From Candidatus Bipolaricaulia bacterium (GTDB lineage Bacteria; Bipolaricaulota; Bipolaricaulia; JBHIAT01), in NCBI GenBank assembly GCA_046758705.1, contig JBHIAT010000027.1, positions 1 through 29,161 on the forward strand: a stretch of 29,161 bases of DNA, in the 5' to 3' direction. Below the pieces are notes generated by a model. That model was not told where the DNA came from and ran no database searches. It saw only the letters and a list, made by a program, of their open reading frames with translations. A program made the translations under genes and the position numbers. Positions 10,711-29,020 of the stretch are shown here, in pieces; positions within the stretch are counted from its first letter, which is position 1; the number at the start of each line of letters is the position of its first letter.

Positions 10711-10738
10711 AATCAACTCCTTTCTGACCGTTGCTGAG

Positions 10739-11991: not shown

Positions 11992-12033
11992 AAAATTTTT
12001 GCAAAAATCAGCATCAGAAATCCGAGATTATCT

Positions 12034-12123
12034 ATGGATAATCGCACTTTAAGTCAACAGACCTATGAATACCTGCGTCAGGATATCCTGTCCAATCGCC
12101 TGTAACCTAGCGAGGTCATCATC
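12034..12123 (+). pseudogene. GntR family regulator N-terminal remnant
   Basis: MDNRTLSQQTYEYLRQDILSNRL*PSEVI resembles GntR helix 1 ('L..Q.Y..LR..I....L.PG'). Internal TAA at 12103-12105, and the rest of the gene is missing. Confidence 0.7.
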
Positions 12124-13137
12124 ATGACTCAATTTGGCGTCAACTTGAACAACCGCGAACCGCTCCTGGCGGAAGCGTACCGTGTGGCAGACCTGCTCGA
12201 TCTGTCCGAGGTCGTTGAGCAATCGGGCTTCGACTCGGTCTGGGTCGGTGACAGTCTGTTTTCCAAACCGCGTTACGAACCGCTGCAATTGCTGGCAGCT
12301 ATTTCCCAGCGCACGTCACGGGTCCGTCTGGGCACGGCCTGTCTGGTCACCGCCACGCGCAATCCCCTGTATCTGGCATTGGAATGGGCGACGTTGGACG
12401 TCCTCTCCAACGGGCGCACGATCCTCGGCGCCTGCATGGGAAATCCTGAGGAAGGCGTACGCAGAGAATATCAAGCCCTCAGGCTTGACTTTGCCAAGCG
12501 GGCGAACATCTTCGAAGAGGGGTTGGCGGTGCTACGCGAACTCTGGACTCGCGGCAAGGTGAACTTTCAGGGTGAGTATTTTCAGTACGAGGACGTTCAG
12601 TTTTACTCGGGGACGGAGATGGGGCCGCTATCACCGGTTCAAAAGCCACCGCCCATCTGGGTGGTGAGCAACCCCCGGTTGATTCCGGGTAGCGTGACCG
12701 AGGAAGGCGTACAGCGCATCATTGACCGGGCATCGCGGCGCATCGCTCGATACGGTGACGGCTGGCTGACCTGTTGCCGCGCCCGTCATCCGGAAGAGTT
12801 TCAATCACAACGCAAGCGCATCGCTGAAGCCGTGGCCAAGATCGATCGCGACATCTCCGAGTATGCGATGGCCTACCAGGTGACCATGAACGTCGCAGAC
12901 AGCGAGGTGGAAGCTCAACGCAGCCTCGGGGAGTACATCAGCACCTATTATCCGGAACTCAGTCAGTCTATGGATCTGGGGGAGTGGGGACCCACGGGTA
13001 CGCCAGAACAGATCGCCCAGTGGATCCGCGACTTCCAAGACGCCGGGGTCAACTACTTCATCTGTCGCTTTGGCGCTTTGGATCAGTTCGGCCAGGTCGA
13101 ACGGTTCACAAACGAGGTTTTGCCGTTGGTGAGTTAA
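12124..13137 (+). CDS. LLM-class (luciferase-like) flavin/F420-dependent oxidoreductase
   Basis: GFDSVWVGDS, TSRVRLGT, ATLDVLSNGR, YGDGW, GTPEQ motifs. Confidence 0.9.
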   Translation: MTQFGVNLNNREPLLAEAYRVADLLDLSEVVEQSGFDSVWVGDSLFSKPRYEPLQLLAAISQRTSRVRLGTACLVTATRNPLYLALEWATLDVLSNGRTILGACMGNPEEGVRREYQALRLDFAKRANIFEEGLAVLRELWTRGKVNFQGEYFQYEDVQFYSGTEMGPLSPVQKPPPIWVVSNPRLIPGSVTEEGVQRIIDRASRRIARYGDGWLTCCRARHPEEFQSQRKRIAEAVAKIDRDISEYAMAYQVTMNVADSEVEAQRSLGEYISTYYPELSQSMDLGEWGPTGTPEQIAQWIRDFQDAGVNYFICRFGALDQFGQVERFTNEVLPLVS

Positions 13138-13193
13138 ACTATTAAGAGACATAAAAAACAAAAAGGAGGAAGTCATCGTGAACTACCCACCCC

Positions 13194-14312
13194 CTAAAGG
13201 GGAGCGGGCTTCAACGGCGCAAGGCCGTGGGCTGGTTCCCAACCCGTAGCTTTAGACAGAATCACCAGAGCGGCGTTGAGGTCGCGATCACAGCGGAAGT
13301 CGCAATGAGGACAGTCATGCACACGCAAACTGAGCATCTTAGGAACAAGCTGACCGCACGATGCGCACTGTTGGCTTGTGTAGGCGGGGTTGACCTTTAC
13401 GAGCTTGGACCCGGTTCTCTCTACCTTGTATCCAAGCATCGGTACGAAGGTTCCCCAACCTGCATCGTAGATCGACTTGTTCAGTCCGTTGTGACCGTTG
13501 GCTGTCATGTTCTTGATGTTCAGCTTTTCGACCGCGATCCGGCTAAACTCTTGAGTCAATCGGTGAGACAGCTTGTGCAAGAAGTCCTTGCGTTGACGCT
13601 GGACCTTGGCGTGAAGCTGAGACAGGCGGTTGCGCTGCCGCCGGGACTTACACTTGGAGTACCGTTGTTGGACTGCCTTAAGGCGTTCCTCAGACTGGCG
13701 ATACCAGCGCGGGTTAACGATCTTTTCACCCGTAGACAACGTGGCAAACGACTCCAGGCCCACGTCGATCCCTACAGCGGGACCGGTGTGAGCAGGCGGC
13801 GTTGGGTTGGGGAACTCAAAGCGAAAGGTGACAAACCACTTGCCATCAGCGTGGCGAGTCAGCACCAAGTCTTTGATCTTGGCACCGTCAGGCAAACCAC
13901 GATGCCAGCGAACCTTGATCTCGCCAGCATTTTGGATTCTCAGCCGGTGGTTCTTGGTCAGGCTGGTACCATCGCCAAAACGGAACTCCAGCGAGCGGAA
14001 GCGCGCCAGCGGTTTGAACCGTGGCCGACCCCGCTTGCCGTTGACGAACTCACGGTACACCTTATCCAGCCTGCGAAGCACCTGCTGGCATGCCGAGAAG
14101 TTGAGAACACCGATGTCGGGATGCTCGTTGCGGATCGCTTTGAGGTCCGAAGCCTGATCCAGATACCAGACTGGCTTGCGATACCATCTCCAACACAACA
14201 GACGATGTTCCAGACTGGCGTTGTAGAGCCGCTGGCCCGCCACAAGCAATTGCTCAAGCGCTTGTGCTTGCTTCTTGGTCGGATACAGGCGGTATTGGTA
14301 AGCGCGTTTCAA
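13194..14312 (-). CDS. tnpB: RNA-guided endonuclease TnpB
   Basis: AYQYRLYPT N-terminus, RuvC motifs GIDVG / AVEKL / DRDLNAA, zinc finger CASC..CPHC. Confidence 0.95.
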   Translation of the reverse strand: MKRAYQYRLYPTKKQAQALEQLLVAGQRLYNASLEHRLLCWRWYRKPVWYLDQASDLKAIRNEHPDIGVLNFSACQQVLRRLDKVYREFVNGKRGRPRFKPLARFRSLEFRFGDGTSLTKNHRLRIQNAGEIKVRWHRGLPDGAKIKDLVLTRHADGKWFVTFRFEFPNPTPPAHTGPAVGIDVGLESFATLSTGEKIVNPRWYRQSEERLKAVQQRYSKCKSRRQRNRLSQLHAKVQRQRKDFLHKLSHRLTQEFSRIAVEKLNIKNMTANGHNGLNKSIYDAGWGTFVPMLGYKVERTGSKLVKVNPAYTSQQCASCGQLVPKMLSLRVHDCPHCDFRCDRDLNAALVILSKATGWEPAHGLAPLKPAPL

Positions 14313-14708
14313 TTAAACCTCCGTCTGTTCTTCGATGTAACGTTTGATCGTTTCAGCGGATACGTGCCCAGCGGTTCCAACGTAATAGGTGCGCGTCCAA
14401 AGTTTGCCGCGAATCTGCTGTTCCAGTTGGGGGAATTCATGGCGAAGCCAGCGAGCGGTTGGTCCCTTAAATGCGTTGGCAATCCAAGCAGGAGAATGTC
14501 TTGGCGGTGCGGATACGAACAGGTGAACGTAGTCCGGCATCACTTGGGCTTCCAGAATCTCAAGCTCGTTATTGGCGGCAATGGTCTCGAACATCTCAAG
14601 CAAGCGGTTTTTCACCGAACCCACAAGAATAGGGCGGCGATACTTGGGTATCCACACCAGGTGATAGTTGATATTGTAAACCGTATAGCGTGTTTTCTTC
14701 GCTTGCAT
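14313..14708 (-). CDS. tnpA: IS200-type Y1 transposase TnpA (HUH motif altered to YVH)
   Basis: YHLVWIPKYRR, LWTRTYYVGT, IKRYIEEQ motifs; PDYVH instead of PDHVH. Confidence 0.92.
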   Translation of the reverse strand: MQAKKTRYTVYNINYHLVWIPKYRRPILVGSVKNRLLEMFETIAANNELEILEAQVMPDYVHLFVSAPPRHSPAWIANAFKGPTARWLRHEFPQLEQQIRGKLWTRTYYVGTAGHVSAETIKRYIEEQTEV

Positions 14709-14817
14709 GATCTAAGTATACACGAAACGGAGGTGAAGGTCAAGGGCTTCAGCGCTATCGCGCTGCGGTCAATTCCCCTCGCCCCCTGAACCGGGCGAAT
14801 CCCCTTGACCGTTTTCT

Positions 14818-15816
14818 ATGGATGAGTCTATGCGTAAAGATGCAGAGTTGATTGTGGACATCTGCATGTCCATCGGCAAAGACGAGGCGGTCACGATCAT
14901 CACCGACAATGACCACCTCAAAGAGGCGAATGCGCTGGCTGCGGTCGCGGTCGATCGAGGAGCGTTCCCAGTCATTGCCAACAACGATGCTCAGGTGAGC
15001 CGTGGTCTCAAGGACACGCACTTTCCCATGGCCCCTCCCAAGAACCTCCATCAAGCGATGGTTCACTCGGACACCATCCTGATCATCACCAACCTGGAGT
15101 GGGCCAATCGCTTTGCCCACATCAGCGCGGTCAAAGAGTCGTGTGCAAACAACGCCAAGATCGCGTCGGTGGAGGAGGGAATGGGCTCATGGAATTTGAT
15201 GCAGGAGGACATCCAACAGGCCGTGGACCGCGCGCATAAGGCAGCCGAGATCCTAAATCAGGCGAACCGTGTCCGGGTGACCTCGGCGGTGGGCACCGAC
15301 GTCGAGGTCTCCATCGAGAGACGCCCGGCGCTGGAAGTGATCCCGATCAAGAACCCAGGGGACATGATGGGCCCCCTGCCTCTGTGGACTGAGGTCGCTT
15401 TTGCCGCCGTGGAAGATCAGACCGAAGGCCGCATCGTGGTCGATGGCGTCATGTTGGGGATTGGGGTTCCGGGCGCGGTGAACACGCCGATCGTCTGGGA
15501 GGTCAAGGGAGGCAAAGCCGTGTCGATCGAAGGCGGAGAAGAGGCTGAACGCCTTAAGAACACGATCGAGGGCGTGGACGGCGCGGACATCATCGGTGAG
15601 TTTGCCTTCGGCACGAGCGAAAAAGCTCCGTTCGGCACACCCTCAGAAAAGGGTCGACGAGGAACGATTCACTTCGCCCTCGGCGACAACCACAACGCTT
15701 ACCCCGGTGGCCAAAACGTGAGCACGCTGCACCTCGATGGCGTTGTCCGCGACGGCACGCTCCAGGTCGTGGACACCGGGCAATATATCGTCAAAGATGG
15801 ACAGTGGATGATATGA
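14818..15816 (+). CDS. Peptidase M29-like / NicX-fold metalloenzyme
   Basis: VRVTSAVGTD, EV.FA, EG.IVVDG, IGEFAFGT, GTIHFALGDN, HLDG motifs. Confidence 0.75.
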   Translation: MDESMRKDAELIVDICMSIGKDEAVTIITDNDHLKEANALAAVAVDRGAFPVIANNDAQVSRGLKDTHFPMAPPKNLHQAMVHSDTILIITNLEWANRFAHISAVKESCANNAKIASVEEGMGSWNLMQEDIQQAVDRAHKAAEILNQANRVRVTSAVGTDVEVSIERRPALEVIPIKNPGDMMGPLPLWTEVAFAAVEDQTEGRIVVDGVMLGIGVPGAVNTPIVWEVKGGKAVSIEGGEEAERLKNTIEGVDGADIIGEFAFGTSEKAPFGTPSEKGRRGTIHFALGDNHNAYPGGQNVSTLHLDGVVRDGTLQVVDTGQYIVKDGQWMI

Positions 15817-16190
15817 GCTTGAATCCGAATGAAGTGCAGGTGGTTCGGCTGTCCGAGACGTCCAAAATCGAACTGCCTCAAGGAAGCTGGAGTGCGATGG
15901 TGATCTCCACGGAGCGGGTCTCAGGCAATCAAAGTTCGTTGGGATACTCGGTGTTCACGCCAGGGACGGCGTTGCCGACCGTGAAGCACGAGGTCGAAGA
16001 GGTGGCTATCGTGCTTCAGGGCAGGGGGGAACTGCGCATAGATGGGGATTCCATTCCATATCAGAAGGGCGATGCGCTGTTCATCCCGGCCGGCGTGTGG
16101 CATTCGGTGGTCAATACCGGATCGGAGGACGTCGTGATGGTGTTTGGCTTTCCTCATCCGGAGTATCCACCCACGAAAAGGCGAGAATAA
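15813..16190 (+). CDS. Cupin domain protein
   Basis: HEVEEVAIVLQGRG and GDALFIPAGVWH cupin motifs; ATGA overlap with the previous gene. Confidence 0.88.
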   Translation: MSLNPNEVQVVRLSETSKIELPQGSWSAMVISTERVSGNQSSLGYSVFTPGTALPTVKHEVEEVAIVLQGRGELRIDGDSIPYQKGDALFIPAGVWHSVVNTGSEDVVMVFGFPHPEYPPTKRRE

Positions 16191-16195
16191 CCCCT

Positions 16196-16912
16196 ATGAA
16201 GTCGACTCGGCAACTGCAAACAGAGGTGGCCTGGGCGTGTCGGATCTTGGCGATGGAAAACCAGGGGGATTTGAGCCTGGGACACGTCAGCGCGCGGTAT
16301 GACTCACGGACGGTGTACATGAAGCGGCGAGGGCTGGGACTGGGTGAGGTAACCGCAAACGACGTGATCCCCATAGATCTTCAGGGTCGGCAACTCGAGC
16401 CAGCGGAGAATGGACAGGGTGTACACCTGGAGTTCCCTTTGCATACCGAAGTGTACAAGCTGAGGCCCGATGTGGGGGCGGTGATCCATGCCCACCCCAT
16501 CCACGCGATCGCGTTGGGAGCTACCTCTGAGGAGCTCAAGATGATCAATCACGATGCCGTACTGTTCTATGACGGCTTGCCCCGCTTCAATGACTCACCC
16601 GACCTGATCACCGGTACCGAGCAGGGACAGGCCGTCGCCCGCGCGCTGGGCAGCGCTCGCGCCTTGCTGCTGTGCAACCACGGCACATTGGTTGTTGGCA
16701 AGGATGTGCGCTGGGCGATCGTCACCGCCCTGACCTTGGAAAGAGCGATACAACTGCAGCTGATCGCAACCCGCTTGGGAGATTTGACCCACGTGATCAG
16801 TGCGTCTGAGGCAGAAGCCCTGTTTCCGAAAAAGTACCAGGATGCGTTTATCGATGACTACTGGGAATATCTCATCCGCCGTGCTCGACGTGTGGGAGAG
16901 GATGTCTCATGA
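16196..16912 (+). CDS. Class II aldolase/adducin family protein; candidate 3-hydroxy-2-methylpyridine-4,5-dicarboxylate decarboxylase
   Basis: GHVSAR, E..LH..VY..RPDVGAVIHAH, NHG motifs. The specific function is inferred from context only. Confidence 0.8.
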   Translation: MKSTRQLQTEVAWACRILAMENQGDLSLGHVSARYDSRTVYMKRRGLGLGEVTANDVIPIDLQGRQLEPAENGQGVHLEFPLHTEVYKLRPDVGAVIHAHPIHAIALGATSEELKMINHDAVLFYDGLPRFNDSPDLITGTEQGQAVARALGSARALLLCNHGTLVVGKDVRWAIVTALTLERAIQLQLIATRLGDLTHVISASEAEALFPKKYQDAFIDDYWEYLIRRARRVGEDVS

Positions 16913-16928
16913 GTATGAGGAGGTGGAT

Positions 16929-19214
16929 GTGGATTCGCTGATTGGCAAGAGCATACCGCGGGTTGACGGTGTCGACAAGGTGACCGGGCAGGCGATCTAC
17001 ACCGCCGATCTCAGGTTGCCCAACATGCTCTACGGCAAGGTGCTGAGAAGTCCCTATCCCCACGCCCGCATCCGAAACATCGATGTAAGCGGCGTGCTCA
17101 AGATCCCAGGCGCCGTCGCGGTGCTGACCGGCAAAGATCTGACGGAGATCGATCCCTTCTATGGACATGCGATCAAGGACCGTCCGATCGTCGCAATCGA
17201 CCGGGTGCGGTTTATCGGCGAACCGGTCGCGGCCGTGGCTGCAGAAAGCGAGGCGATCGCCGCAGATGCCCTCGATGCGATTCACGTTGAGTATGAGGAG
17301 CTGCCGGTGGTGGCAGACATCGAAGCGGCCTTGAAGGAAGGGATGCCTGCACTGCATGAAGACACCCCGCGCCGCCTCGGACTGTTTCACGGCTTGGGAG
17401 ATCTAGGCCCTCTGGAAGGCAACGTCTGTTATCGCTATGGGTTCTCCACGGGCGATGTAGACGAACTCTTTGCCGAAGCCACTCACGTGGTCGAAGCGGA
17501 GTACACCTTCCCGGCCGTCTACCAATATGCCATGGAAACCCATGCCGCCTTGGGGCACTACACCAACGAGAAGGTGACGATCTGGGCGAACTGCCAGCAT
17601 CCCCATATCATCCGGGCGGAGATCGCTGACATTTTCTCAATTCCGCTCTCGATCGTGCGCGTCATCGTCCCGTACATCGGCGGGGGATTCGGCAGCAAAT
17701 CTTACACCCGTCTGGAACCGCTTGCCGTAGCGCTGTCGATGAAAGTGGGATATCCGGTCCTCATCGTGAACACGGTCGAGGAAGCGATGGCCACCTCGCG
17801 CCGTCACGGAATGCGCTGTTGGATGAAAACAGCGGCAGACGGACACGGCCGTCTGTTGGCTCGACAATGCCGGCTATGGCTGGATACGGGCGCCTATGCC
17901 GATAACGGTCCGCGGGTGGTCGCAACCGCCGGCGATGCAGCGCCAGGGCCCTATCGCTGGCAGGCGGTGTCGATCGAGGCCGCCGGGGTGTACACCAACA
18001 CCTCACCGGCGGGATCGTACCGCGCGTTAGGCAACGCGCAGCTGCAATGGATCGGGGAAAATCAGGTGGATACACTCGCACGTCGCATCGGCATCGATCC
18101 GGTGGAGATGCGCCGGCAAAATTTGCTCAAGCCCGGTGAGGAGGTGCGTCCAGGAGCCAAACCGTTGGACGCTGATCTGATCGGCGATGTGACGAAAGCA
18201 GCGGAAGCCCTGGGCTGGGACAGCTCCACCCCCAAATCACCCGGGGTGGGCCGAGCGGTCAGCGTGGGACTGCTGGCTGCCGGAGCACATCCTGTGTCTA
18301 CCGCGCTGGTCCACATGCTCGCCGACGGGAGCGTCCTGGTGTTAGTGAGCACGACCGAGGTGGGCCAAGGGGCTCAAACGGTGATGACCCAGATCGTTGC
18401 CTCTGAGTTAGCGATCTCGCCGTCGCGAGTCCGGGTCGTCAACCCAGACACCGAGTTCTCGCCCTTTGATCGCTCGACCGGAGCCAGTCGGTCCACCACC
18501 ATCGCTGGTAAAGCACTGCAAAATGCGGCGGTGGATTTGCGAAACAAGCTGGTGAGCATGGCAGCACGATCATGGGACCAGCCGGAGTCAGCCGCCGAAG
18601 TCAAGGACGGTGGCATCTCTTTCGGCAATGAAGTGATTCCTTACGAAAAAATCATCGAGCGTTACTTCGGGATGGTCGGCGGTCAGGTGGTCGGTTTCGG
18701 TGAGGTTCACCCGAAAAAGGGCGATGACGGTTCGTTTGCAAAAGGTCCCGTCTTTTGGGAGGTCTGCGTCGGCGCTGCTGAAGTCGAGGCGGATCCCGAA
18801 ACGGGGCGGGTGCGTTTGAAGAAGCTGGTTGCGGTGGCTGACCTCGGACGTGCCATGAACAAAGCGTTGATCGAGGGACAGGAGCAAGGAGGCAGCTTAC
18901 AGGGCATGGGGAATGCGCTGATCGAAGAGATGGTCTTCGAAAACGGTCAACTGCTCAACCCGTCACTGCTCGACTACCGGGTTCCTCGGTGGGAGGACAT
19001 TCCAGAACAGTTTGCGTCCGTCCTGGTTGAGAACGAAGACGGGCCCGGCCCGTATGGAGCGAAAGGTATAGGAGAGGGATCTCAAGCCGCAGCGATCGGC
19101 GCGGTGGCCGGTGCGGTGGCGGACCTCGGCATCGAGGTCCGCCAGCTGCCGCTCACACCGGCGATGGTCTGGGCAGCTATGCAGGATAGACAACAGACCA
19201 AGGAAAAAACCTGA
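16929..19214 (+). CDS. Xanthine dehydrogenase-family molybdopterin-binding large subunit
   Basis: IGKSIPRVDG..KVTG, RSPYPHARI, GGGFGSK, EVGQG, TGASR, GAKGIGE (catalytic Glu). GTG at 16929 with GAGGAGG SD; alternative ATG at 16902. Confidence 0.9.
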   Translation: MDSLIGKSIPRVDGVDKVTGQAIYTADLRLPNMLYGKVLRSPYPHARIRNIDVSGVLKIPGAVAVLTGKDLTEIDPFYGHAIKDRPIVAIDRVRFIGEPVAAVAAESEAIAADALDAIHVEYEELPVVADIEAALKEGMPALHEDTPRRLGLFHGLGDLGPLEGNVCYRYGFSTGDVDELFAEATHVVEAEYTFPAVYQYAMETHAALGHYTNEKVTIWANCQHPHIIRAEIADIFSIPLSIVRVIVPYIGGGFGSKSYTRLEPLAVALSMKVGYPVLIVNTVEEAMATSRRHGMRCWMKTAADGHGRLLARQCRLWLDTGAYADNGPRVVATAGDAAPGPYRWQAVSIEAAGVYTNTSPAGSYRALGNAQLQWIGENQVDTLARRIGIDPVEMRRQNLLKPGEEVRPGAKPLDADLIGDVTKAAEALGWDSSTPKSPGVGRAVSVGLLAAGAHPVSTALVHMLADGSVLVLVSTTEVGQGAQTVMTQIVASELAISPSRVRVVNPDTEFSPFDRSTGASRSTTIAGKALQNAAVDLRNKLVSMAARSWDQPESAAEVKDGGISFGNEVIPYEKIIERYFGMVGGQVVGFGEVHPKKGDDGSFAKGPVFWEVCVGAAEVEADPETGRVRLKKLVAVADLGRAMNKALIEGQEQGGSLQGMGNALIEEMVFENGQLLNPSLLDYRVPRWEDIPEQFASVLVENEDGPGPYGAKGIGEGSQAAAIGAVAGAVADLGIEVRQLPLTPAMVWAAMQDRQQTKEKT

Positions 19215-19224
19215 ACAACAGACG

Positions 19225-21833: not shown

Positions 21834-21834
21834 T

Positions 21835-22758
21835 ATGGAAGTGTTTGTGACCGTGTTGTTAAGCTCAGGGTTGCGTTCTTCCATCACGTTGCTGCTTGCG
21901 GCGCTCGGCGAAACTTACAACGAGAAAGCCGGGCTCCTCAATCTGGGCATTGAGGGTATGATCCTGAACGGGGCGTTTGGTGGGTTCTACGTCGCATTCA
22001 ACACAGGAAGCGTCTTCTTGGGCTTTGTCGCCGGCTTGGTGGTGGGCATTATCTCCGGTCTGATCTTCGGTTACCTCGCGATTACGCTCAAGCTCAACCA
22101 GGTCGTCGTGGGAATTGGATTCACCATCTTCGCTACCGGGATTACCAGCTTCCTGTTTCGCTACTTCTACGGTCGACGCTTTCCCACGTTGGACCTGGGG
22201 AATAAAACGCTCGAAATCCCGCTACTCAGCAAGATTCCCGTCCTCGGTCCGATGCTGTTCGACCAGCATCTGGTCGTCTACTTGGCACTGTTGATGGTCC
22301 CCGTATTTCATCTGGTGATGACACGAACCTCCTTCGGGCTCAACGTCAAAGCCGTCGGCGAAAGCCCTGTCGCTGCCGACGCCTCCGGGGTCAACGTCGT
22401 TCGGATCCGATACGCGGTCAGCGCCATTGCGGGCGCGACGGCCGGTTTGGGCGGGGCATTTCTCTCTATCGGCGACCTGTCGTTCTTTTTGCCGGGGATG
22501 ACCCAGGGAATAGGTTTCATCGCCATTGCGATTGCCATGCTCGGCCGGTGGGCCCCGTATCGGGTTTTTATCGGAGCGTTTCTGTTCGGGTTGGTGCAAT
22601 CTCTCGATGCCGGATTGCAGACCCAAGGCATCCCCGTCCGACCGGAGTTCATTCATATGTTACCATACATCGGCGTTATCGTTGCCCTGGTGTTCCTGGC
22701 GCGCAACGCGAGATTGCCAGCAGCGCTGGCCCTGCCCTATGAACGGGGGAGGCAGTAA
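21835..22758 (+). CDS. ABC transporter permease 2
   Basis: LLAALGE...KAGLLNLGIEG, AVGESP.AADASGVNV, MLPY motifs. Confidence 0.9.
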   Translation: MEVFVTVLLSSGLRSSITLLLAALGETYNEKAGLLNLGIEGMILNGAFGGFYVAFNTGSVFLGFVAGLVVGIISGLIFGYLAITLKLNQVVVGIGFTIFATGITSFLFRYFYGRRFPTLDLGNKTLEIPLLSKIPVLGPMLFDQHLVVYLALLMVPVFHLVMTRTSFGLNVKAVGESPVAADASGVNVVRIRYAVSAIAGATAGLGGAFLSIGDLSFFLPGMTQGIGFIAIAIAMLGRWAPYRVFIGAFLFGLVQSLDAGLQTQGIPVRPEFIHMLPYIGVIVALVFLARNARLPAALALPYERGRQ

Positions 22759-22844
22759 TGCAGACAGAGACAGGCAAGGAGGTGATCACCGTTCACAGCA
22801 CCCGAGCTTAACAGGCTAAATCGAAACCCAAAAACTAAAGAGGG

Positions 22845-23918
22845 GTGTCAGTGATGAACAGATTCAAAGTCGGTCTGTTGGTGTTGCTAGGCGTATTTCT
22901 GCTTGGCCTGTTGCCCAACTTAGATCTAGCTGAGCAGCTGGTCTGGAGTCAACAGAAGCTAAAGGTCGGTGTGGTGGTACCGGCAAGCCGCTTCGATCAA
23001 GGCTGGAACCAGGCGGCTCCCGATTCGATAGAGAGCATTGCAGACGAGCTTGGCTTGGAGGTAGAGATCGCCGAGCAGGCCGGGTACGGCGACATCTCAC
23101 CGATCCTCAGAGATTGGGCGTTCCGAGGATTCGACATAGTCATCTGTCACGCCAGCGGTTACCAGACCGTCTGCCCCGAGGTGGCTCAACAAACGGGACT
23201 TAAGGTAGTGATCGTCGAGAACATGCCGGCGGTCACACCGAATCTGGTCGCAGACTATGAGACCCAGGCCCAGGAGGGCGCTTACCTGGCAGGCGTTCTG
23301 GCCGGTATGATCACCCGCACCAACACGGTCGGGGTGGTCGTCTCGGCAGAGCCCCCCACCTGGAACTTCATGACGGTGGGATTTGCCGAAGGAGTCCACT
23401 CGGTGAATCCGAGCGCCAGGCTCCTCTACAACGTCATCGGTGACGCGGCCTACGAAGATGCGGCGGGGGCCAAGCGCAATACCGAGGCTCAGATCGCCGC
23501 TGGGGCTGACGTCGTCTTCGGTCAAGGAGATGGAGCGACGTTTGGCATGCTGCAAGCCGTTCAGGAGAACGAGGCCACTGATGGTGGCAAGGTGTGGTTC
23601 ATCGACGTGATCGGAGACAAGCGGACCATCGATCCGACCAACTCGATCCTGACTTCGGTGCTGTTCGATTACTCAGGGATCTTCTCCGCAATGGTCAACA
23701 ACATTCGCGACGGCACCTTCGGAAAGATCCACACCATGACCGTCCAGAACGGTGGTGTGCGATTGCTTGCACCGCCTGCGACCATCTCCGTGGAGGCACG
23801 TACCGCGCTCGCTCAGGCGGAAGCAGATCTATTGACCGGTCGGGTCGTGGTCTCAGCGATCGGTAATGTGGCAGGTCTGAGAGCGCGGCTCGAGGAACTC
23901 TTCCCAGACTCATTCTAA
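22845..23918 (+). CDS. BMP-family ABC substrate-binding protein (putative B6 vitamer binding)
   Basis: Signal-like N-terminus; DQGWNQ, EGAYLAGVLAG, GADVVF motifs. Start is 22845 or 22854. Confidence 0.88.
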   Translation: MSVMNRFKVGLLVLLGVFLLGLLPNLDLAEQLVWSQQKLKVGVVVPASRFDQGWNQAAPDSIESIADELGLEVEIAEQAGYGDISPILRDWAFRGFDIVICHASGYQTVCPEVAQQTGLKVVIVENMPAVTPNLVADYETQAQEGAYLAGVLAGMITRTNTVGVVVSAEPPTWNFMTVGFAEGVHSVNPSARLLYNVIGDAAYEDAAGAKRNTEAQIAAGADVVFGQGDGATFGMLQAVQENEATDGGKVWFIDVIGDKRTIDPTNSILTSVLFDYSGIFSAMVNNIRDGTFGKIHTMTVQNGGVRLLAPPATISVEARTALAQAEADLLTGRVVVSAIGNVAGLRARLEELFPDSF

Positions 23919-23929
23919 CTAACTCGGAT

Positions 23930-23971
23930 GGGTCCCGTTTCTCCGGGATCGTCCCGGAGGAACGGGGACCC
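23930..23971 (+). other. Strong GC-rich intergenic hairpin without a U-tract
   Basis: GGGTCCCGTTTCTCCGGGA-TCG-TCCCGGAGGAACGGGGACCC (one bulge, one G-U pair). Confidence 0.75.
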
Positions 23972-23997
23972 TCACGGCAAAGGGGTGAGGTAAAACG

Positions 23998-25167
23998 ATG
24001 CAGTGGCCAATCATGAATTTCGCCGCGGGACCGGTCGCGGTGACGGAGCGCACACTGAGGGATCAAGCCCGCCCTGTTCTCTATCACTATGATCCGGCAT
24101 TTCTGGAGTTTTTTGAGAGGACGGCGTCCCTGCTGCAGCAGGTGTATCGCACCGAATACGACGTGGTCATCATGCAAGGAGAAGCGGTCCTGGGTCTGGA
24201 GGCGACAGCTGCCTCCCTCATCTCGCCCGGAGATAAGGTGCTGAATTTGGTCTCCGGTGTGTTCGGCAAGTGGTACGAGCTGTATATCACCAAATACGGC
24301 GGTGAGACGGTGGAACTGGCGGTTCCCTATAATGATGCGATCGATCCCGATGATGTTCGAGCCGCGCTGAAGCGTGACCCGGAGATCAAATATCTGTCGG
24401 TTGTCCATTCGGAGACTCCCTCCGGTACGATCAACCCGGTCAAAGAGATCGGTGCCATTGCCCGGGAACACGATGTGCTTACCATCGTGGACACCGTTTC
24501 CGGTCTAGGCGGAGAACTCCTCAGCCCTGAGGAATGGAACATCGATGTCGCCGTGGCCGGCCCGCAGAAATGCCTCGGAGGGCCACCGGGGCTGTCACTG
24601 ATGGCGATCAGCCCCACAGCGTGGAACGCCATGGAGTCGCGAGACGACCCGCTGCGCGGTTCGTATCTATCGATCCTCGATTGGAAAGCGGCATGGATCG
24701 AGGAGCATCGCTTCCCCTACACGCCGTCGGTGAGCGACATCTATGCACTAGAGTCTGTGCTTTCACAGGTTCTAGAGGTGGGTCTGGAGAGTTACGTGGC
24801 ACGACACGAGGCGATCGCTCAGGCCTGTCGTGAGGGAGTCAAGGCACTGGGTCTGGAACTGTGGGCGGCACGCGAGGAGATCGCCGGGACTGCGGTAACC
24901 GCGGTCAAAATACCCAATGAGCTGACCGATGAGCAACTGCGGGGTCATCTGCGCGAGCACTATGGCGTGATGGTCTCCGGTGGATACGGAGAATTGGCCG
25001 GCAAGCTGTTTCGCCTGGGACACATGGGGAAGGTGGCACACCCGACGTACTTGGCGGCTCAGCTAGGTGTGTTGGAACGGACGCTGGCCGACCTGGGCAT
25101 GCCCGTGGAGTTCGGCACAGGTGTGGGAACTGCCATGGCTGCGTTAAGCGACTGGAAAAATTTATGA
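23998..25167 (+). CDS. ppaT: Pyridoxamine-pyruvate aminotransferase (class V fold)
   Basis: AGPV, VLYHYDPAF, GE.VLGLEA.AASLISP, VPYNDAIDP, TPSGTINP, GPQKCLG.PPGL and FP.TPSVS closely match my recollection of Mesorhizobium loti PPAT. Confidence 0.85.
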   Translation: MQWPIMNFAAGPVAVTERTLRDQARPVLYHYDPAFLEFFERTASLLQQVYRTEYDVVIMQGEAVLGLEATAASLISPGDKVLNLVSGVFGKWYELYITKYGGETVELAVPYNDAIDPDDVRAALKRDPEIKYLSVVHSETPSGTINPVKEIGAIAREHDVLTIVDTVSGLGGELLSPEEWNIDVAVAGPQKCLGGPPGLSLMAISPTAWNAMESRDDPLRGSYLSILDWKAAWIEEHRFPYTPSVSDIYALESVLSQVLEVGLESYVARHEAIAQACREGVKALGLELWAAREEIAGTAVTAVKIPNELTDEQLRGHLREHYGVMVSGGYGELAGKLFRLGHMGKVAHPTYLAAQLGVLERTLADLGMPVEFGTGVGTAMAALSDWKNL

Positions 25168-25189
25168 GAAAGGAAGGAAAGCAAAAAAA

Positions 25190-25933
25190 ATGCCGATCAG
25201 TGTGAAGGATCGTGTTGTCATTGTCACCGGCGGGGTCGGCGAGTTGGGATCGGTCATCGCTCGGCGCCTCGTAGAAGAGGGAGCCAAGGTCGTACTCGCC
25301 GATATACAGGATGGAGCTGCCCTTGAAGCTGAGCTCCAGAAGATCGGCACGGCCAAGTACGTCGAAACGGACGTCGGTGACGAAGGATCCACCCTTAACA
25401 TGGCCGCGGTCACGCAGGAGACCTTCGGCCGGATCGACGTGCTGATCAACAACGCCGGGATCTACACCGGAAAGCCCTTCGAAGAGATTACGCTGGAAGA
25501 CTGGCGGGAACGAATGCGCGTCAACCTGGACGGGGCATTCCTGTGTGTCAAAGCCGTGCTTCCGGCGATGAAAGCGCAACAAGCCGGGCGCATCATCAAC
25601 ATTGGCTCGGACACCGTCTGGATGGGCACACCGGGGCTGGCCCACTATGTCGCCAGCAAAGGCGGATTGCTGGGATTGACCCGTGCCCTGGCTACCGAAC
25701 TGGGACCGCTGGGGATCAAGACCGTGTGGATCTCCCCGACGTTGTTCGACACGCCGGGAACCCGACAAGCCTTTCTTCAAGAACACTTCGACTACGTCCT
25801 CAGCCATACCCCGATTGGCAAGTTCGAAACACCCGAGGACGTAGCCGGACTGGTGACCTTCCTGTGCTCCGATGAAGCCGAGTTCATCAACGGCTCAGCC
25901 ATTAACATCGGCGGGGGGATCAGCATGCATTAA
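25190..25933 (+). CDS. SDR oxidoreductase, pyridoxal 4-dehydrogenase-like
   Basis: TGGxxxLG, NNAG, YVASK motifs. GTP..AHYVASKGG..G.TRALATELG resembles pyridoxal 4-dehydrogenase; adjacent to ppaT. Confidence 0.75.
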   Translation: MPISVKDRVVIVTGGVGELGSVIARRLVEEGAKVVLADIQDGAALEAELQKIGTAKYVETDVGDEGSTLNMAAVTQETFGRIDVLINNAGIYTGKPFEEITLEDWRERMRVNLDGAFLCVKAVLPAMKAQQAGRIINIGSDTVWMGTPGLAHYVASKGGLLGLTRALATELGPLGIKTVWISPTLFDTPGTRQAFLQEHFDYVLSHTPIGKFETPEDVAGLVTFLCSDEAEFINGSAINIGGGISMH

Positions 25934-25965
25934 CCCAAATCTAAATCTAAGGCAGGTGATCCATC

Positions 25966-26712
25966 ATATCTATCAAGGTCTATCTGTTGGACGGTGGAAG
26001 CCTATTGCTCGACCAGTCATTCCTCACTTGGAACCACGGGATAGGCACTGCAAAGCGCATTCCCGTCTTCTCCGTGTTCATCGACCATCCCGAGGCCAAG
26101 GTGCTGTTCGACACCGGATTTGACCTGGAGCAAACCCAGAAGGATCTACCGTTCGAAGAGCCGTTGCAGACGGAGGAACAGACGATCGCCGCCCAGTTGG
26201 ACAAGATCGGGGTGCAGTCAAGCGATATCGACATCCTGGTCAACAGCCACCTCCACTTCGACCACTGCGGCGCCAACAAGCTGTTCCCCGACGTTGAGAA
26301 CATCATTAACAAGTGGGAGCTTCGCGAAGCGTTTGTTCCAGAGCCTTTCGAGCGTCTCGGCTACAACCGCATACACTTTGACTTTCCGGATCGAAATTAC
26401 CGGCTGATCGAGGGAGACTACGGGGTGCTGCCTGGCATTCAGCTCATATTCACGCCTGGGCATACGGTGGGACACTACTCCTTGTTGGTGGAGCTCGACT
26501 CGGGACCGCTGCTTTATGTCTCAGACGCCGCATGGGGTCCGGAAAACCTCGAGCACAACCATCCGATGGGACTGCACCACGATCCGTTGGCGATGCTGAA
26601 GTCGTTCCAACGGTTGAGGCAGATCATCGCAACTCGCAAGCCGATCGTGCTCTATCCTCACGATTTCGAGCAGTACGAGACGTACAAGAAAACGCCGGAT
26701 TTCTATGAATAA
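25966..26712 (+). CDS. 4-pyridoxolactonase (metallo-beta-lactamase fold, AHL-lactonase-like)
   Basis: KVYLLDGGSL.LD, LPFE.P.Q, VNSHLHFDHCG.NK, PFE.LGY, TPGH..GHYSLLVE. The expected start position 25966 is ATA. Confidence 0.85.
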   Translation: MSIKVYLLDGGSLLLDQSFLTWNHGIGTAKRIPVFSVFIDHPEAKVLFDTGFDLEQTQKDLPFEEPLQTEEQTIAAQLDKIGVQSSDIDILVNSHLHFDHCGANKLFPDVENIINKWELREAFVPEPFERLGYNRIHFDFPDRNYRLIEGDYGVLPGIQLIFTPGHTVGHYSLLVELDSGPLLYVSDAAWGPENLEHNHPMGLHHDPLAMLKSFQRLRQIIATRKPIVLYPHDFEQYETYKKTPDFYE

Positions 26713-26732
26713 CCGCAGCAGAAAGGGGAAAC

Positions 26733-27683
26733 ATGGCCAATAACGTTCCAAAGACCGGTGCCGTGATCGGAGCGGGCACGATGGGGCCGGGCGTAGCGGT
26801 GATGATGGCCCGGGCAGGTACTACGGTGCACCTGATGGATATCGATGAGCAGGTGATCGAGCGCGCCAGCGAGGTCGCCCAAGTGGCAGCCAACGCCCTG
26901 AAGGAGGCCGGAGAGCTGACCGCTGAAGGCGTTGAACAAGCGCTGGGAAGGATTCACCGGACCACCTCGTTGGAGGAAGCCGTCAGAGACGCGGAGTTCG
27001 TCGTTGAGGCGGTTCCTGAAAAGTTGGAGATCAAGCAACAGGTCTTTGCCGAGATGGAAGCACTCGTCTCGCCGGAGACGATTCTCGCCAGCAATACCTC
27101 GGGAATTCCCATATCCAAGCTCCAGGAAGGGCGCAGCCGTGCGGAGTTGATGGTGGGGATGCACTGGTCGAACCCACCGCACATCATCGCGGTCATCGAA
27201 GTGATCCGTGGCAAGCACACCTCAGATGCGACCGTGGAAGCCACCCGCGATTACATCAAAGCGATGAACCAAATCCCCGTCATCGAGGGGGAGATCCCCG
27301 GCTTCGTAGAGAACCGCATCCTCTACGCGATCATGCGGGAGGCGCTGCATTTGGTGGAGCAGGGCGTGGCTTCGGTCGAGGACATCGATGCTACCGTGCG
27401 CTGGGGCATCGGCATGAAACTGGCGGTCATCGGTCCGTTGGCACTGCTCGATGTCGCAGGCTTGGATATCTATCACAGCGTCGCCTCGTATCTAAACCGC
27501 GATCTGAGCTCGGAGACAGGCATCAGCAAAACCATCGAGGACCGGGTGAACCGAGGCGACCTTGGGCTCAAGACCGGCAAAGGCCTGTTCGAGTATGCCC
27601 CAGGGGAGATTCCCAAACTGATGCAGGCCAGAGTCGCTACGATGCTGAAGTTGAGGCAAACATTGATGGAAGCCGAGGTTTGA
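26733..27683 (+). CDS. 5-formyl-3-hydroxy-2-methylpyridine-4-carboxylate (FHMPC) dehydrogenase-like, 3-hydroxyacyl-CoA DH fold
   Basis: G.GTMGPG, TSGIPISKLQ, VGMHWSNPPHII, PGFVENR.LYA, WGIG.K.AVIGP.ALLD.AGLDIY match the FHMPC dehydrogenase as recalled. Confidence 0.85.
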   Translation: MANNVPKTGAVIGAGTMGPGVAVMMARAGTTVHLMDIDEQVIERASEVAQVAANALKEAGELTAEGVEQALGRIHRTTSLEEAVRDAEFVVEAVPEKLEIKQQVFAEMEALVSPETILASNTSGIPISKLQEGRSRAELMVGMHWSNPPHIIAVIEVIRGKHTSDATVEATRDYIKAMNQIPVIEGEIPGFVENRILYAIMREALHLVEQGVASVEDIDATVRWGIGMKLAVIGPLALLDVAGLDIYHSVASYLNRDLSSETGISKTIEDRVNRGDLGLKTGKGLFEYAPGEIPKLMQARVATMLKLRQTLMEAEV

Positions 27684-27690
27684 GCCTGAA

Positions 27691-28170
27691 ATGGAGTTTC
27701 ATAAGTCTACGGTCATCCGTGCACCCCATCAACGGGTGTGGGATTTCCTCTGGGATATCGAGCAGATGATAGAGTGCATTCCGGGGTGTCAGTCAGCCAC
27801 GACAGTGGAACCGGAGAAGAACTACCAGGCCGAGGTGGTCCAGAAGGTCGGTCCGTTTAGGGTGCAATTTCCACTGGACATCGCGATCAGGGAGAAGCAA
27901 GCGCCACACCACCTGGTGGCCGTTGCATCCGGCCGGGATTCTCGGGTCGAGTCGAGTGTCAACGTCGAACTCGACCTCCACCTGAAAGAAAAGACGAGCC
28001 AGGAGACGGAGCTGTCGTTCACCGCAAATGTCAACCTGTTGGGGAAGCTGGTCACGCTGGGACATGGCCTGATCCAGCGCAAAACGGATGAGATCATGAC
28101 CCAGTTTGCCAACGCGCTCAAGGAGCGACTCGAGGGAGGCGGGGAGGGGGACGCAGTTGAAGCCGTTTGA
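27691..28170 (+). CDS. coxG: CoxG/SRPBCC accessory protein of Mo-hydroxylases
   Basis: RVWDFLWD....CIPGC, KVGP, GKL..LG..LI motifs. Confidence 0.85.
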   Translation: MEFHKSTVIRAPHQRVWDFLWDIEQMIECIPGCQSATTVEPEKNYQAEVVQKVGPFRVQFPLDIAIREKQAPHHLVAVASGRDSRVESSVNVELDLHLKEKTSQETELSFTANVNLLGKLVTLGHGLIQRKTDEIMTQFANALKERLEGGGEGDAVEAV

Positions 28171-29020
28171 GATCCACGACGTGCGCTCGGCCGGTGAAGC
28201 GTCGGAGCTGTTAGCCCATTACGGCGAGACCGCTAAGCCCTACGCAGGTGGCACTGAACTGCTGTTGGTGATGAAGGCTGGGCTGCTGCACTATGACCAC
28301 TTGATCAACATCAAGACGATTCCGGGGTTGAATGCCATTCGCTACGCTGAAGACCAATCGATGTTGAAAATCGGGGCTTTGGCCACTCACCGTGACATCG
28401 AGCGATCTCCGGTGGTTCAGAAGCACCTGTCCCTACTGGCTGAACTGGAGCGCTCGATCGCCAACGTCCGTGTGCGCAACGTGGGTACGATAGGCGGAAA
28501 CTTATCTTTTGCCGAACCGCACTCCGACCCGGCTACCCTGTTCATGGCCCTGGGTGCTCAGTTAAAGCTCGGTAGCAGCCGGGGAGACCGTACGCTTCCC
28601 ATCGATGAATTTATCGTCGATGCCTATGAAACGGCTCTAAACCAGGACGAACTGTTGACCGAAATACAGATCCCTCTCCCCTCGACCAGGACGGGTGGAG
28701 GGTACCAGCGGTTCCAGTTTTATGAACGCCCGGCAGTGAGCGTTGCGGTATGGCTGACCTTGGATAGGGCGAGAGAAGGTATGGAAGAGGTGCGGATTAC
28801 GGTGGGTTGTGTTGAGCCGAAGCCGGTTCGGGCTATAGAGGCCGAGGCCATATTGCAAGGAAAGGCCATTGACGAAGCCCGTTCACTGATAGTGGAGGCG
28901 GGGAGAAAGGCAGCAGCAGCGATGCATCCGATCGATGATCTCAATGGGTCAGGGGAATATAAAAAACACCTGGTTGAGGTGTTTGTGACGCGAGCATTTC
29001 ACCAAGCTTACAGAATTTAG
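28157..29020 (+). CDS. Xanthine dehydrogenase-family FAD-binding (CoxM-like) subunit
   Basis: TTG start (LKPF) with GGAGG SD; AGGTEL, IGALATH, VRNVGTIGGN, DDLNGSGEYK motifs. Confidence 0.9.
   Translation: MKPFEIHDVRSAGEASELLAHYGETAKPYAGGTELLLVMKAGLLHYDHLINIKTIPGLNAIRYAEDQSMLKIGALATHRDIERSPVVQKHLSLLAELERSIANVRVRNVGTIGGNLSFAEPHSDPATLFMALGAQLKLGSSRGDRTLPIDEFIVDAYETALNQDELLTEIQIPLPSTRTGGGYQRFQFYERPAVSVAVWLTLDRAREGMEEVRITVGCVEPKPVRAIEAEAILQGKAIDEARSLIVEAGRKAAAAMHPIDDLNGSGEYKKHLVEVFVTRAFHQAYRI

Follow-up and report, generated by a model that had tools for sequence, protein, structure and literature searches.

The stretch analyzed here (hereafter, the window) is the entire contig JBHIAT010000027.1 of a Candidatus Bipolaricaulia bacterium (C27 in our numbering; 29,161 nucleotides), one of the 319 contigs of a 3.70-Mb assembly that is 93.9% complete and 4.7% contaminated. 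Between positions 12124 and 29020, the window carries a gene cluster in which homologs of the upper enzymes of vitamin B6 degradation and a BMP-type ABC importer stand together with a luciferase-like (LLM) oxidoreductase, a NicX-family metalloprotein, a small cupin, and a molybdenum hydroxylase of the xanthine dehydrogenase (XDH) family. Profile searches were run with Pfam for 30 open reading frames (ORFs) of the window and with NCBIfam for 10, the families PF00732 and PF01494 were additionally scanned genome-wide, and the start codons of the cluster genes were refined. The features of the cluster are as follows.

12034-12105, plus strand: remnant of a GntR/FCD regulator, 23 codons followed by a stop (sole match on the contig in tblastn with the regulator of the closest relative, locus L018)
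12124-13137, plus: LLM oxidoreductase, probably F420-dependent (PF00296, 161.8 bits)
13138-14817, minus: IS200/IS605 insertion with tnpB (13194-14312) and tnpA (14313-14708) (Pfam OrfB_IS605, Cas12f1-like_TNB, Y1_Tnp)
14818-15816, plus: NicX-family/M29-fold metalloprotein, candidate ring-opening enzyme (PF02073, 47.3 bits)
15804-16190, plus: small monocupin with a His-Glu-His metal site (Cupin_2, 67.3 bits)
16196-16912, plus: class II aldolase/adducin-fold protein, candidate decarboxylase of the 3-hydroxy-2-methylpyridine-4,5-dicarboxylate (HMPDC) type (PF00596, 134 bits)
16902-19214, plus: molybdopterin-binding large subunit (Mo-L) of an XDH-family hydroxylase (Ald_Xan_dh_C, MoCoBD_1, MoCoBD_2)
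19225-20778, plus: ABC importer ATPase with two ABC domains (PF00005, two stretches)
20775-21833, plus: ABC importer permease 1 (BPD_transp_2)
21835-22758, plus: ABC importer permease 2 (BPD_transp_2)
22845-23918, plus: BMP-family substrate-binding protein, B6 type (PF02608; NF047927)
23998-25167, plus: homolog of pyridoxamine-pyruvate transaminase (PPAT), class-V aminotransferase (NF046070)
25190-25933, plus: short-chain dehydrogenase/reductase (SDR), candidate pyridoxal 4-dehydrogenase (NF047923)
25987-26712, plus: 4-pyridoxolactonase homolog, metallo-beta-lactamase fold (NF047925)
26733-27683, plus: homolog of 5-formyl-3-hydroxy-2-methylpyridine-4-carboxylate (FHMPC) dehydrogenase, 3-hydroxyacyl-CoA dehydrogenase fold (NF042925)
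27691-28170, plus: CoxG-like (SRPBCC) accessory protein (PF06240)
28106-29020, plus: FAD-binding medium subunit CoxM of the Mo hydroxylase (FAD_binding_5, CO_deh_flav_C); the true start is probably later
29086-29161, plus: TnpB-like ORF, first 25 codons, running off the contig (by eye, against the N terminus of the tnpB product at 13194-14312)

The gene families named in a first-pass annotation of this sequence were all recovered by Pfam and NCBIfam where it had placed them, on the plus strand; its description of the cluster as co-oriented and tightly packed fails at one point, where a minus-strand IS200/IS605 element of 1.68 kb separates the LLM gene from the NicX-like gene.

Five window proteins each have a B6-specific NCBIfam model as their top match. 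The PPAT homolog matches NF046070 at 444.6 bits (cut-off 600; runner-up family 212), the lactonase NF047925 at 282.9 bits (cut-off 325; runner-up family 158), the FHMPC dehydrogenase homolog NF042925 at 378.5 bits (cut-off 500; runner-up family 230), and the SDR the pyridoxal 4-dehydrogenase model NF047923 at 221.6 bits (cut-off 325; runner-up 207). The fifth, the BMP binding protein, has NF047927 as its sole NCBIfam match (330 bits; cut-off 400), and the name of that model, 'putative B6 ABC transporter substrate-binding protein', indicates that its curators had noticed the association of the importer with B6 genes. The margin over the runner-up family is wide for four of the five matches and thin, relative to generic SDR families, for the SDR. 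The binding protein and the transaminase are 45-48% identical to those in Rhizobium plasmid clusters, with the window PPAT being 48% identical to the annotated PPAT of one such plasmid. The aldolase-fold protein aligns over its full length with Mlr6791 of Mesorhizobium loti (2z7b), yet this match ranks eighth, at 65 bits, and the NCBIfam matches of the protein include 3,4-dihydroxyphthalate decarboxylase; its assignment as a decarboxylase thus holds at the level of fold and family.

The enzymes of the established pathway I are PPAT, pyridoxal 4-dehydrogenase, 4-pyridoxolactonase, 4-pyridoxate dehydrogenase, FHMPC dehydrogenase, HMPDC decarboxylase, 2-methyl-3-hydroxypyridine-5-carboxylate (MHPC) oxygenase, and 2-(acetamidomethylene)succinate (AAMS) hydrolase. 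As the first-pass annotation had claimed, no protein of the glucose-methanol-choline (GMC) oxidoreductase, FAD_binding_3 (class-A flavin monooxygenase), or alpha/beta-hydrolase type is present among the 30 Pfam-scanned window ORFs, and the genome scans with PF00732 and PF01494 gave zero matches on the window contig. An MHPC oxygenase-like enzyme was sought with PF01494 throughout the window's own genome and was not found in this 93.9% complete assembly: among the 13 matches, the only substantial one, on contig C36, belongs to the geranylgeranyl reductases (TIGR02032, 226 bits, above the cut-off), and the remaining 12 are short or weak. The starts of four of these 12 were read by eye; three resemble an electron-transfer flavoprotein oxidoreductase, a glycerol-3-phosphate dehydrogenase, and an enzyme of the D-amino-acid-oxidase type, and the fourth belongs to a remnant of 199 amino acids. 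This remnant (C144:6407-7006), which adjoins a CN-hydrolase gene, retains the N-terminal dinucleotide-binding motif of class-A flavin monooxygenases and a C-terminal part (profile positions 260-323), with the middle of the fold gone. The lack of a GMC enzyme holds for the window and for the 80 related loci described below, but not for the whole genome, which encodes one unlinked GMC oxidoreductase on contig C34. This protein, whose best family is choline dehydrogenase (below the cut-off), shares 34% identity with an annotated pyridoxine 4-oxidase of a Rhizobium plasmid and may supply the GMC step. The NCBIfam models NF047924 and NF047926, considered as models of MHPC oxygenase or AAMS hydrolase, were rejected as unrelated families, and a plasmid search with FHMPC dehydrogenase for a cluster of the M. 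loti type returned generic 3-hydroxyacyl-CoA dehydrogenases only.

Linkage and families of the lower-pathway candidates

To place the cluster among its relatives, one genome per species was scanned, yielding 324 that encode a relative of the NicX-like protein, which itself has more than 1,400 database relatives at E ≤ 1e-5 (the best 120 being 67-77% identical). The locus counts refer to the best 80 of these 324, with flanks of at most 10 kb, and were obtained by tblastn with 15 window proteins as queries (E ≤ 1e-10, query coverage ≥ 60%); the 41 loci with full 10-kb flanks were also counted separately. By record titles, the hosts belong to Chloroflexota (Thermomicrobiales, Anaerolineae, Caldilineaceae), Actinomycetota (Solirubrobacterales, Gaiellaceae, Thermoleophilaceae, Nitriliruptoraceae, Acidimicrobiia), Armatimonadota, and Bacillota, and all are metagenome-assembled genomes. 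The counts, in all loci and in the full-flank loci, respectively, are:

LLM: 72/80; 40/41
cupin: 77/80; 40/41
aldolase-fold protein: 73/80; 41/41
Mo-L: 56/80; 37/41
CoxM: 52/80; 32/41
lactonase: 44/80; 33/41
FHMPC dehydrogenase: 39/80; 26/41
PPAT: 26/80; 20/41
SDR (36-44% identity; may include generic SDRs): 27/80; 20/41
BMP protein: 28/80; 22/41
at least one upper B6 gene: 63/80; 41/41

CoxS is present in 66 of the 80 loci, and CoxG, found in seven at 23-30% identity, lies outside the conserved core. Of the 72 loci with an LLM gene, 69 have it immediately upstream of the NicX-like gene; among the eight loci without it, seven have no upstream sequence, and in one (L093), with a full 10-kb upstream flank, no LLM was found. 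In the eight loci for which the gene order was printed, the core runs LLM, NicX-like gene, cupin, aldolase-fold gene, and then the Mo-hydroxylase genes, with the genes for FHMPC dehydrogenase, lactonase, SDR, PPAT, and importer nearby in varying arrangement and a GntR gene upstream where checked. In the closest relative (locus L018), the proteins are 57-81% identical to those of the window and the gene order is identical. Clustering of all remaining ORFs of the 80 loci recovered accessory genes only, namely, Zn-dependent alcohol dehydrogenase (28 loci), glyoxalase/VOC (16), M20 hydrolase (7-8), and Amidohydro_2 (7), whereas a GMC enzyme, an HpaB-type monooxygenase, a Rhizobium-type NicX, and an amidase-signature amidase were found in none of the 80.

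Because the arrangement recurs in 80 related loci, it is not due to chance. Linkage of the extra genes to B6 genes, which the first-pass annotation had named beforehand as a check on its proposal, proved to be strongly conserved across four phyla, with an upper B6 gene in each of the full-flank loci. Together with the lack of an MHPC oxygenase-like gene, this linkage supports the idea, put forward in the same annotation, that the additional enzymes replace the missing lower-pathway steps, although which enzyme would replace which step we can only infer. Thus, the LLM, NicX-like, cupin, and Mo-hydroxylase genes very probably serve the catabolism of B6-type pyridines.

The NicX-like protein matches PF02073 only over profile positions 186-406, at the 47.3 bits listed above, and its homologs carry PF26233, a family named 'NicX' (Pfam 38.1). 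The best fold match of its AF2 model (pLDDT 88.9) in a Foldseek search is the dioxygenase NicX (7cn3; E 1.9e-21; TM-scores 0.77/0.73), with the M29 peptidases behind (0.62-0.70 on the query and 0.52-0.59 on the target), and a profile-to-PDB comparison also matched NicX (E 3.2e-5). According to the NicX study, the Fe(II) ligands of this enzyme are His265, Ser302, His318, and Asp320, and alanine at any one of these positions abolishes activity (PMC7910607). In an alignment with annotated Rhizobium NicX, the window protein retains two of the four, H305 and D307 (equivalent to His318 and Asp320), with His265 replaced by Glu261 and Ser302 by Gly/Asp289-290. It additionally contains Glu199 and, in an 'HFALG' motif, His285; E199, E261, H285, H305, and D307 are invariant in 81 orthologs, as is a family-specific 'NLEWANRFAH' motif that stands in place of the NicX Leu104/His105 region. 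The positions of NicX Glu177 and His189 are occupied by Val and Pro, in an alignment at 18-21% identity that is uncertain by one to two residues. The profile-to-PDB alignment also places 'GEFAF' of the window protein against 'GECAL'/'GEVAL' of the M29 peptidases PepS and AmpS. The resulting Glu/Glu/His/His/Asp pattern presumably resembles the dinuclear site of the M29 aminopeptidases. This ligand pattern suggests that the NicX-like protein may be a hydrolase rather than a dioxygenase of the NicX type. The C-terminal 93 residues of the protein, used as a separate PDB query, gave chance matches only.

A second, paralogous cluster is present on contig C57 of the same genome (L101; about 1965-15670, minus strand). 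It encodes a second NicX-like protein, 28% identical to the first and sharing the Glu/His/His/Asp pattern, along with XdhC, CoxS, CoxM, CoxG, a CoA-transferase, two Mo-L proteins, a cyclase/arylformamidase-like protein, an SDR, a CN-hydrolase, and a Zn alcohol dehydrogenase. Reductases and hydrolases are present in this cluster, and no recognizable oxygenase is. We take the gene set to resemble the needs of an isonicotinate/citrazinate route, with two hydroxylations, CoA activation, reduction, and hydrolysis.

The LLM protein has as its top NCBIfam match TIGR03619, an F420-dependent LLM family (132.7 bits, below the cut-off of 166.9), and its best PDB relatives are F420 enzymes, with the ring-opening RutA also matched, at 33 bits. 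It appears to lack the catalytic His, Trp, and Glu of the F420 alcohol dehydrogenases of the FGD/Adf type, and, given this lack, the LLM is more likely to be a reductase than an alcohol oxidase; on the same grounds, a role as an alcohol dehydrogenase that oxidizes 4-pyridoxate with F420, in place of the GMC enzyme, was demoted to a less likely one. CofD is encoded in 30 of the 33 module-bearing genomes sampled (29 above the cut-off), compared with three of 14 controls, all archaea. In the closest relative, cofG, cofH, cofD, and cofC are physically joined to the B6 cluster, and in the window's genome, cofE and the gene for NADPH:F420 reductase (Fno) are adjacent (C54:2829-4246), both above the NCBIfam cut-off. 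These observations indicate that the LLM is probably F420-linked.

Among solved structures, the nearest relative of Mo-L is the alpha subunit of 4-hydroxybenzoyl-CoA reductase (324 bits), followed by a CoxL and the N-heterocycle hydroxylases quinoline 2-oxidoreductase (Qor), Kdh (6-hydroxypseudooxynicotine dehydrogenase), and nicotinate dehydrogenase, which score 223-267 bits. Aldehyde oxidoreductases reach at most 175 bits, and the closer affinity to the N-heterocycle hydroxylases favors a role of the Mo enzyme in ring hydroxylation. The sequence contains the 'GGGFGSK' motif and the C-terminal glutamate of 'GIGEG', as read directly, and neither the L nor the M subunit is disrupted in the window. 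A dehydroxylase of the 4-hydroxybenzoyl-CoA reductase type, suggested by the best PDB match, requires a Cys-rich insertion; CoxM has no such insertion, and this assignment was rejected.

In the cupin, H62, E66, H100, and Y121 are invariant in 77 sequences, with V60 at the usual position of the first His. The closest folds are those of the lyase DddK (TM-score about 0.8), auxin-binding protein, oxalate oxidase, and KdgF; by sequence, the cupin also matches gentisate 1,2-dioxygenases.

Possible routes of ring opening

We tentatively propose, at somewhat less than even confidence, that the lower pathway of the B6 cluster hydroxylates, reduces, and then hydrolyzes the pyridine ring. Every substrate and the order of the steps are what we infer. 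By homology with pathway I of M. loti, the BMP/ABC system would import the vitamin, pyridoxamine would be transaminated to pyridoxal, and the latter would be oxidized to 4-pyridoxolactone and hydrolyzed to 4-pyridoxic acid. The side chain would then be oxidized by the FHMPC dehydrogenase homolog, and the aldolase-fold decarboxylase would remove one carboxylate, leaving a 3-hydroxy-2-methylpyridine carboxylate. The fixed four-part module would stand in for MHPC oxygenase and AAMS hydrolase. In this module, the Mo hydroxylase would place a water-derived hydroxyl on C6, the sole free carbon beside the ring nitrogen, to yield a 2-pyridone; the F420-linked LLM would donate hydride to the now electron-poor ring; the NicX-family protein would hydrolyze the ring amide; and the cupin may finish the open-chain product through tautomerization, ammonia elimination, or decarboxylation.

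This scheme is preferred because each enzyme family keeps its usual chemistry and no extra hydrolase is needed, and because it agrees with the metal-ligand pattern, the F420 link, the context of the C57 paralog, and the nicotinate precedent: in Eubacterium barkeri, Azorhizobium caulinodans, and Aspergillus nidulans, the ring is first partly saturated, and a C-N bond is then opened by hydrolysis (PMC9304392). That the scheme represents a third bacterial B6 route, a 'pathway III' in which the ring is opened without O2 through a Mo hydroxylase using water, an F420H2-dependent LLM, and amide hydrolysis by a NicX-fold protein, appears possible, if rather doubtful. The suggestion of the first-pass annotation that the route may be less O2-dependent is plausible, but the ecology of the hosts does not demand it.

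Several observations weigh against the proposed route. We know of no member of the NicX/M29 fold that hydrolyzes a lactam, the M29 ligand identities are partly provisional, and the best structural match of the NicX-like protein, as well as the name of its Pfam family, is that of a dioxygenase. Hydroxylation of a 3-hydroxypyridine at C6 yields precisely the 2,5-dihydroxypyridine pattern that NicX-type enzymes cleave, and an annotated NicX is linked to upper B6 genes on two Rhizobium plasmids. The hosts are mostly aerobes, with the heme-copper oxidase COX1 encoded in 28 of the 33 host genomes surveyed, although this survey does not separate O2-dependent from O2-independent readings. The association with F420 is confounded by phylogeny, most hosts being Actinomycetota or Chloroflexota, and the window's assembly yielded no CofD, CofH, CofG, or CofC, possibly because their genes lie beyond the contig break. 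As for the remaining enzymes, the cupin's role is a guess, its fold matches being those of generic small cupins; the candidate aldolase-fold decarboxylase is a distant relative of Mlr6791; and all five B6-model scores fall below the curated NCBIfam cut-offs, so that the respective proteins are diverged relatives rather than equivalogs.

Many of these points speak for the alternative that survives best, an O2-dependent route of the 'maleamate type', which we nevertheless consider somewhat unlikely. Here, the Mo hydroxylase would produce 6-hydroxy-MHPC, and the NicX-family protein or the cupin would be an Fe(II) dioxygenase cleaving C2-C3 to an N-acetyl maleamate derivative, followed by ene-reduction by the LLM and hydrolysis or decarboxylation by the cupin or the NicX-like protein. 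Such a route would accord with the fold match to NicX ahead of the M29 peptidases, the Pfam assignment, the NicX genes in the B6 clusters of the two Rhizobium plasmids, and the respiratory oxidases of the hosts. It is further favored by the alignment of His305 and Asp307 with NicX His318 and Asp320, by the invariant His-Glu-His triad of the cupin, as in Fe(II) oxygenases, and its gentisate 1,2-dioxygenase matches, and by a multi-component dehydrogenase that is reported to convert 3-hydroxypyridine at the start of its catabolism (bioRxiv 10.1101/2020.01.08.898148). However, the residues at the His265 and Ser302 positions, Glu and Gly/Asp, replace ligands at either of which alanine abolishes NicX activity (PMC7910607), and Val and Pro stand at the Glu177 and His189 positions, subject to the alignment uncertainty given above. 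Moreover, the conserved core contains no deacylase or amidase for the imide product, and no ring-cleaving dioxygenase is among the closest folds of the cupin, which are those of a lyase (DddK), a hormone-binding protein, and oxalate oxidase.

Quite unlikely, in our estimate, is a more conservative replacement, in which the Mo enzyme oxidizes the aldehyde of pyridoxal or FHMPC, the FHMPC dehydrogenase homolog acts as 4-pyridoxate dehydrogenase, the LLM is an FMNH2/O2-dependent ring-opening monooxygenase like MHPC oxygenase, RutA, and pyridine monooxygenase, and the NicX-like protein substitutes for AAMS hydrolase. XDH-family enzymes do oxidize aldehydes, and the mammalian aldehyde oxidase makes 4-pyridoxate; the Mo-L gene adjoins the FHMPC dehydrogenase gene in seven of the eight printed loci, the LLM family includes RutA, detected as a PDB match, and the M29-type ligand set would suit an amidohydrolase. 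Yet aldehyde oxidoreductases are the more distant relatives of Mo-L, no flavin reductase is conserved in the 80 loci, and the best relatives of the LLM are F420 rather than FMN enzymes, in keeping with the tracking of F420 biosynthesis by the module.

Still less probable is that the cluster degrades a B6-like natural pyridine instead, such as a 4'-O-substituted pyridoxine or another 3-hydroxypyridine, with the B6-type genes being diverged paralogs of shifted substrate. The subthreshold scores of the five B6 models, the lack of a specific affinity of the aldolase-fold protein to Mlr6791, and the thin margin of the SDR would fit such a shift; set against it are five independent B6-specific best matches in one operon, including the rare PPAT at twice the score of its runner-up, and the 45-48% identity that links the binding protein and transaminase to their counterparts on Rhizobium plasmids, in clusters with an annotated pyridoxine 4-oxidase gene. 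Finally, it is highly improbable that the four extra genes are unrelated neighbors of a canonical lower pathway located elsewhere or in unassembled DNA: notwithstanding the incompleteness and fragmentation of the genome, the GMC enzyme on C34, and a genome-wide search confined to the MHPC oxygenase and GMC families, no MHPC oxygenase-like flavoprotein is present in the genome, the linkage is fixed across four phyla, with the B6-type aldolase-fold gene embedded between the cupin and Mo-hydroxylase genes, and this linkage already largely refutes the reading.

Condition and surroundings of the cluster in this genome

The copy of the cluster in this genome is damaged or rearranged. The IS200/IS605 element separates the LLM gene from the NicX-like gene in the window, whereas only 1 bp lies between them in the closest relative; no such insertion is present between the two genes in the eight loci with a printed gene order, and the gap between them measures about 600 bp in three of the 72 loci and stays below 400 bp in the other 69. 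Contig C43 begins with a partial copy of the element (1-1040; 86-93% identity). Upstream of the LLM gene, relatives encode a full-length GntR/FCD regulator (55 of the 80 loci by clustering; confirmed with Pfam where checked), of which the window retains the stub. The AT-rich, promoter-like stretch that precedes the stub (11900-12033) and contains the inverted repeat TTGTATA...TATACAA looks intact. Provided that the regulator represses the operon, its truncation may have made expression constitutive in this organism. Farther upstream lies an N-terminally truncated IS110 transposase gene (10931-11797, plus strand).

At its other end, the contig terminates 141 bp past coxM, within the apparent start of another TnpB, and the gene for the [2Fe-2S] subunit is therefore missing. 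This small subunit was not found in the window; its best match in the assembly, on contig C153, is 50% identical to CoxS of the closest relative, in which coxS directly follows coxM. There, the downstream order is coxG, coxM, coxS, a gene for an M20-family hydrolase, a gene of 316 codons with no assigned function, cofG, cofH, cofD, cofC, and a second LLM gene (L107, G001:C2:24000-39000, minus strand); of the genes that follow coxM there, the window's assembly contains only distant paralogs of coxS and the LLM gene.

The region beside the cluster (1-11797) is of the defense/mobile type. It encodes a DUF4276 protein and an AAA_21 ATPase (1-1739, minus strand), a DUF6079 protein of 1277 amino acids (1740-5573, minus), a short STAND/AAA-like ORF, a histidine phosphatase, a FUN14 protein, two ABC ATPases, and a pair resembling a TacA-like antitoxin and a GNAT toxin (9880-10806, minus). 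The GC content is 0.48-0.53 in positions 1-6000, compared with 0.56-0.61 in the B6 cluster.

Known systems and significance

Bacterial B6 catabolism is known in detail from a few Proteobacteria, and MHPC oxygenase is a textbook example of a ring-opening flavoenzyme. With pathway I of M. loti MAFF303099 and Pseudomonas MA-1, the window cluster shares homologs of PPAT, the SDR, the lactonase, and FHMPC dehydrogenase, as well as the aldolase-fold protein and, in its relatives, a GntR-type regulator. It differs in that GMC enzymes (pyridoxine oxidase, 4-pyridoxate dehydrogenase) and an alpha/beta hydrolase are missing from it, in that its genome has no flavin-dependent MHPC oxygenase, and in that it adds the Mo hydroxylase, the F420-linked LLM, the NicX-family protein, and the cupin.

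The pairing of an XDH-family hydroxylase with a NicX-fold protein that has equivalents of His318 and Asp320 recalls the nic pathway of Pseudomonas putida KT2440 (NicAB and NicX, 7cn3), but in the window protein His265 and Ser302 are replaced, the cluster has no NicC-type monooxygenase, NicD deformylase, or NicF amidase, and the predicted substrate bears methyl and carboxyl groups. In their combination of Mo hydroxylation, partial saturation, and hydrolytic C-N opening, the nicotinate routes of E. barkeri and A. caulinodans (6-hydroxynicotinate reductase and enamidase) and of A. nidulans (HxnS, HxnT, HxnM) resemble the proposed route (PMC9304392). They rely, however, on a ferredoxin-dependent or OYE-type reductase and on an enamidase of the amidohydrolase superfamily or a cyclic imidase, in contrast to the F420-type LLM, the NicX/M29-fold protein, and the B6 catabolite of the window. 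With the M29 aminopeptidases AmpS, AmpT, and PepS, the NicX-like protein shares the fold and apparently the Glu/Glu/His/His/Asp ligand set, the latter as judged from a partial alignment; yet these peptidases are about 410 residues long, compared with about 330 for the window protein, the TM-scores on them are the low ones given above, and the context of the window gene is catabolic, not proteolytic.

Related B6-type gene clusters are those on plasmids of Rhizobium daejeonense (NZ_CP048425, L098) and Rhizobium sp. ACO-34A (CP021372, L099), at about 7500-28700 of either locus, which share PPAT, the BMP/ABC importer, GntR, lactonase, SDR, and a NicX-fold gene. In place of the Mo hydroxylase, LLM, and cupin, all of which they lack, these clusters carry a GMC 'pyridoxine 4-oxidase', a NicX with His at the His265 position, an HpaB-type monooxygenase with a flavin reductase, two amidases, a PrpD-family protein, and a carboxymuconolactone-decarboxylase-family protein. 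No published description of the Rhizobium clusters was found. The first-pass annotation had called the lower route apparently undescribed, and in agreement with this, a full-text literature search, covering sources other than subscription journals and supplementary files, found no publication on such an alternative lower pathway and none that links B6 catabolic enzymes to a Mo hydroxylase, NicX, maleamate, or an LLM; a 2026 preprint on B6 catabolites does not treat the subject either. What the pathway is for is already known, as is the involvement of Mo hydroxylases and NicX-fold proteins in the breakdown of pyridines in general. Apparently new are this combination of enzymes, its connection to B6 and F420, and a NicX subfamily of the hydrolase type.

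Most of the 80 carriers examined are uncultured Chloroflexota and Actinomycetota of soil and sediment. If the proposed function is true, most environmental B6 turnover may run through unassayed chemistry, functions would be gained for four large families that are now 'hypothetical' or misnamed, with annotations such as 'aminopeptidase', 'LLM class oxidoreductase', 'cupin', and 'xanthine dehydrogenase family', and the known reach of the cofactor F420 would be widened. The NicX fold would also offer a natural experiment on switching between hydrolase and oxygenase. Should the O2-free 'pathway III' hold, the module would supply the first case of pyridine-ring reduction with F420 and of a hydrolase among the NicX-family proteins, and soil Actinomycetota and Chloroflexota could mineralize the vitamin at low or no oxygen.

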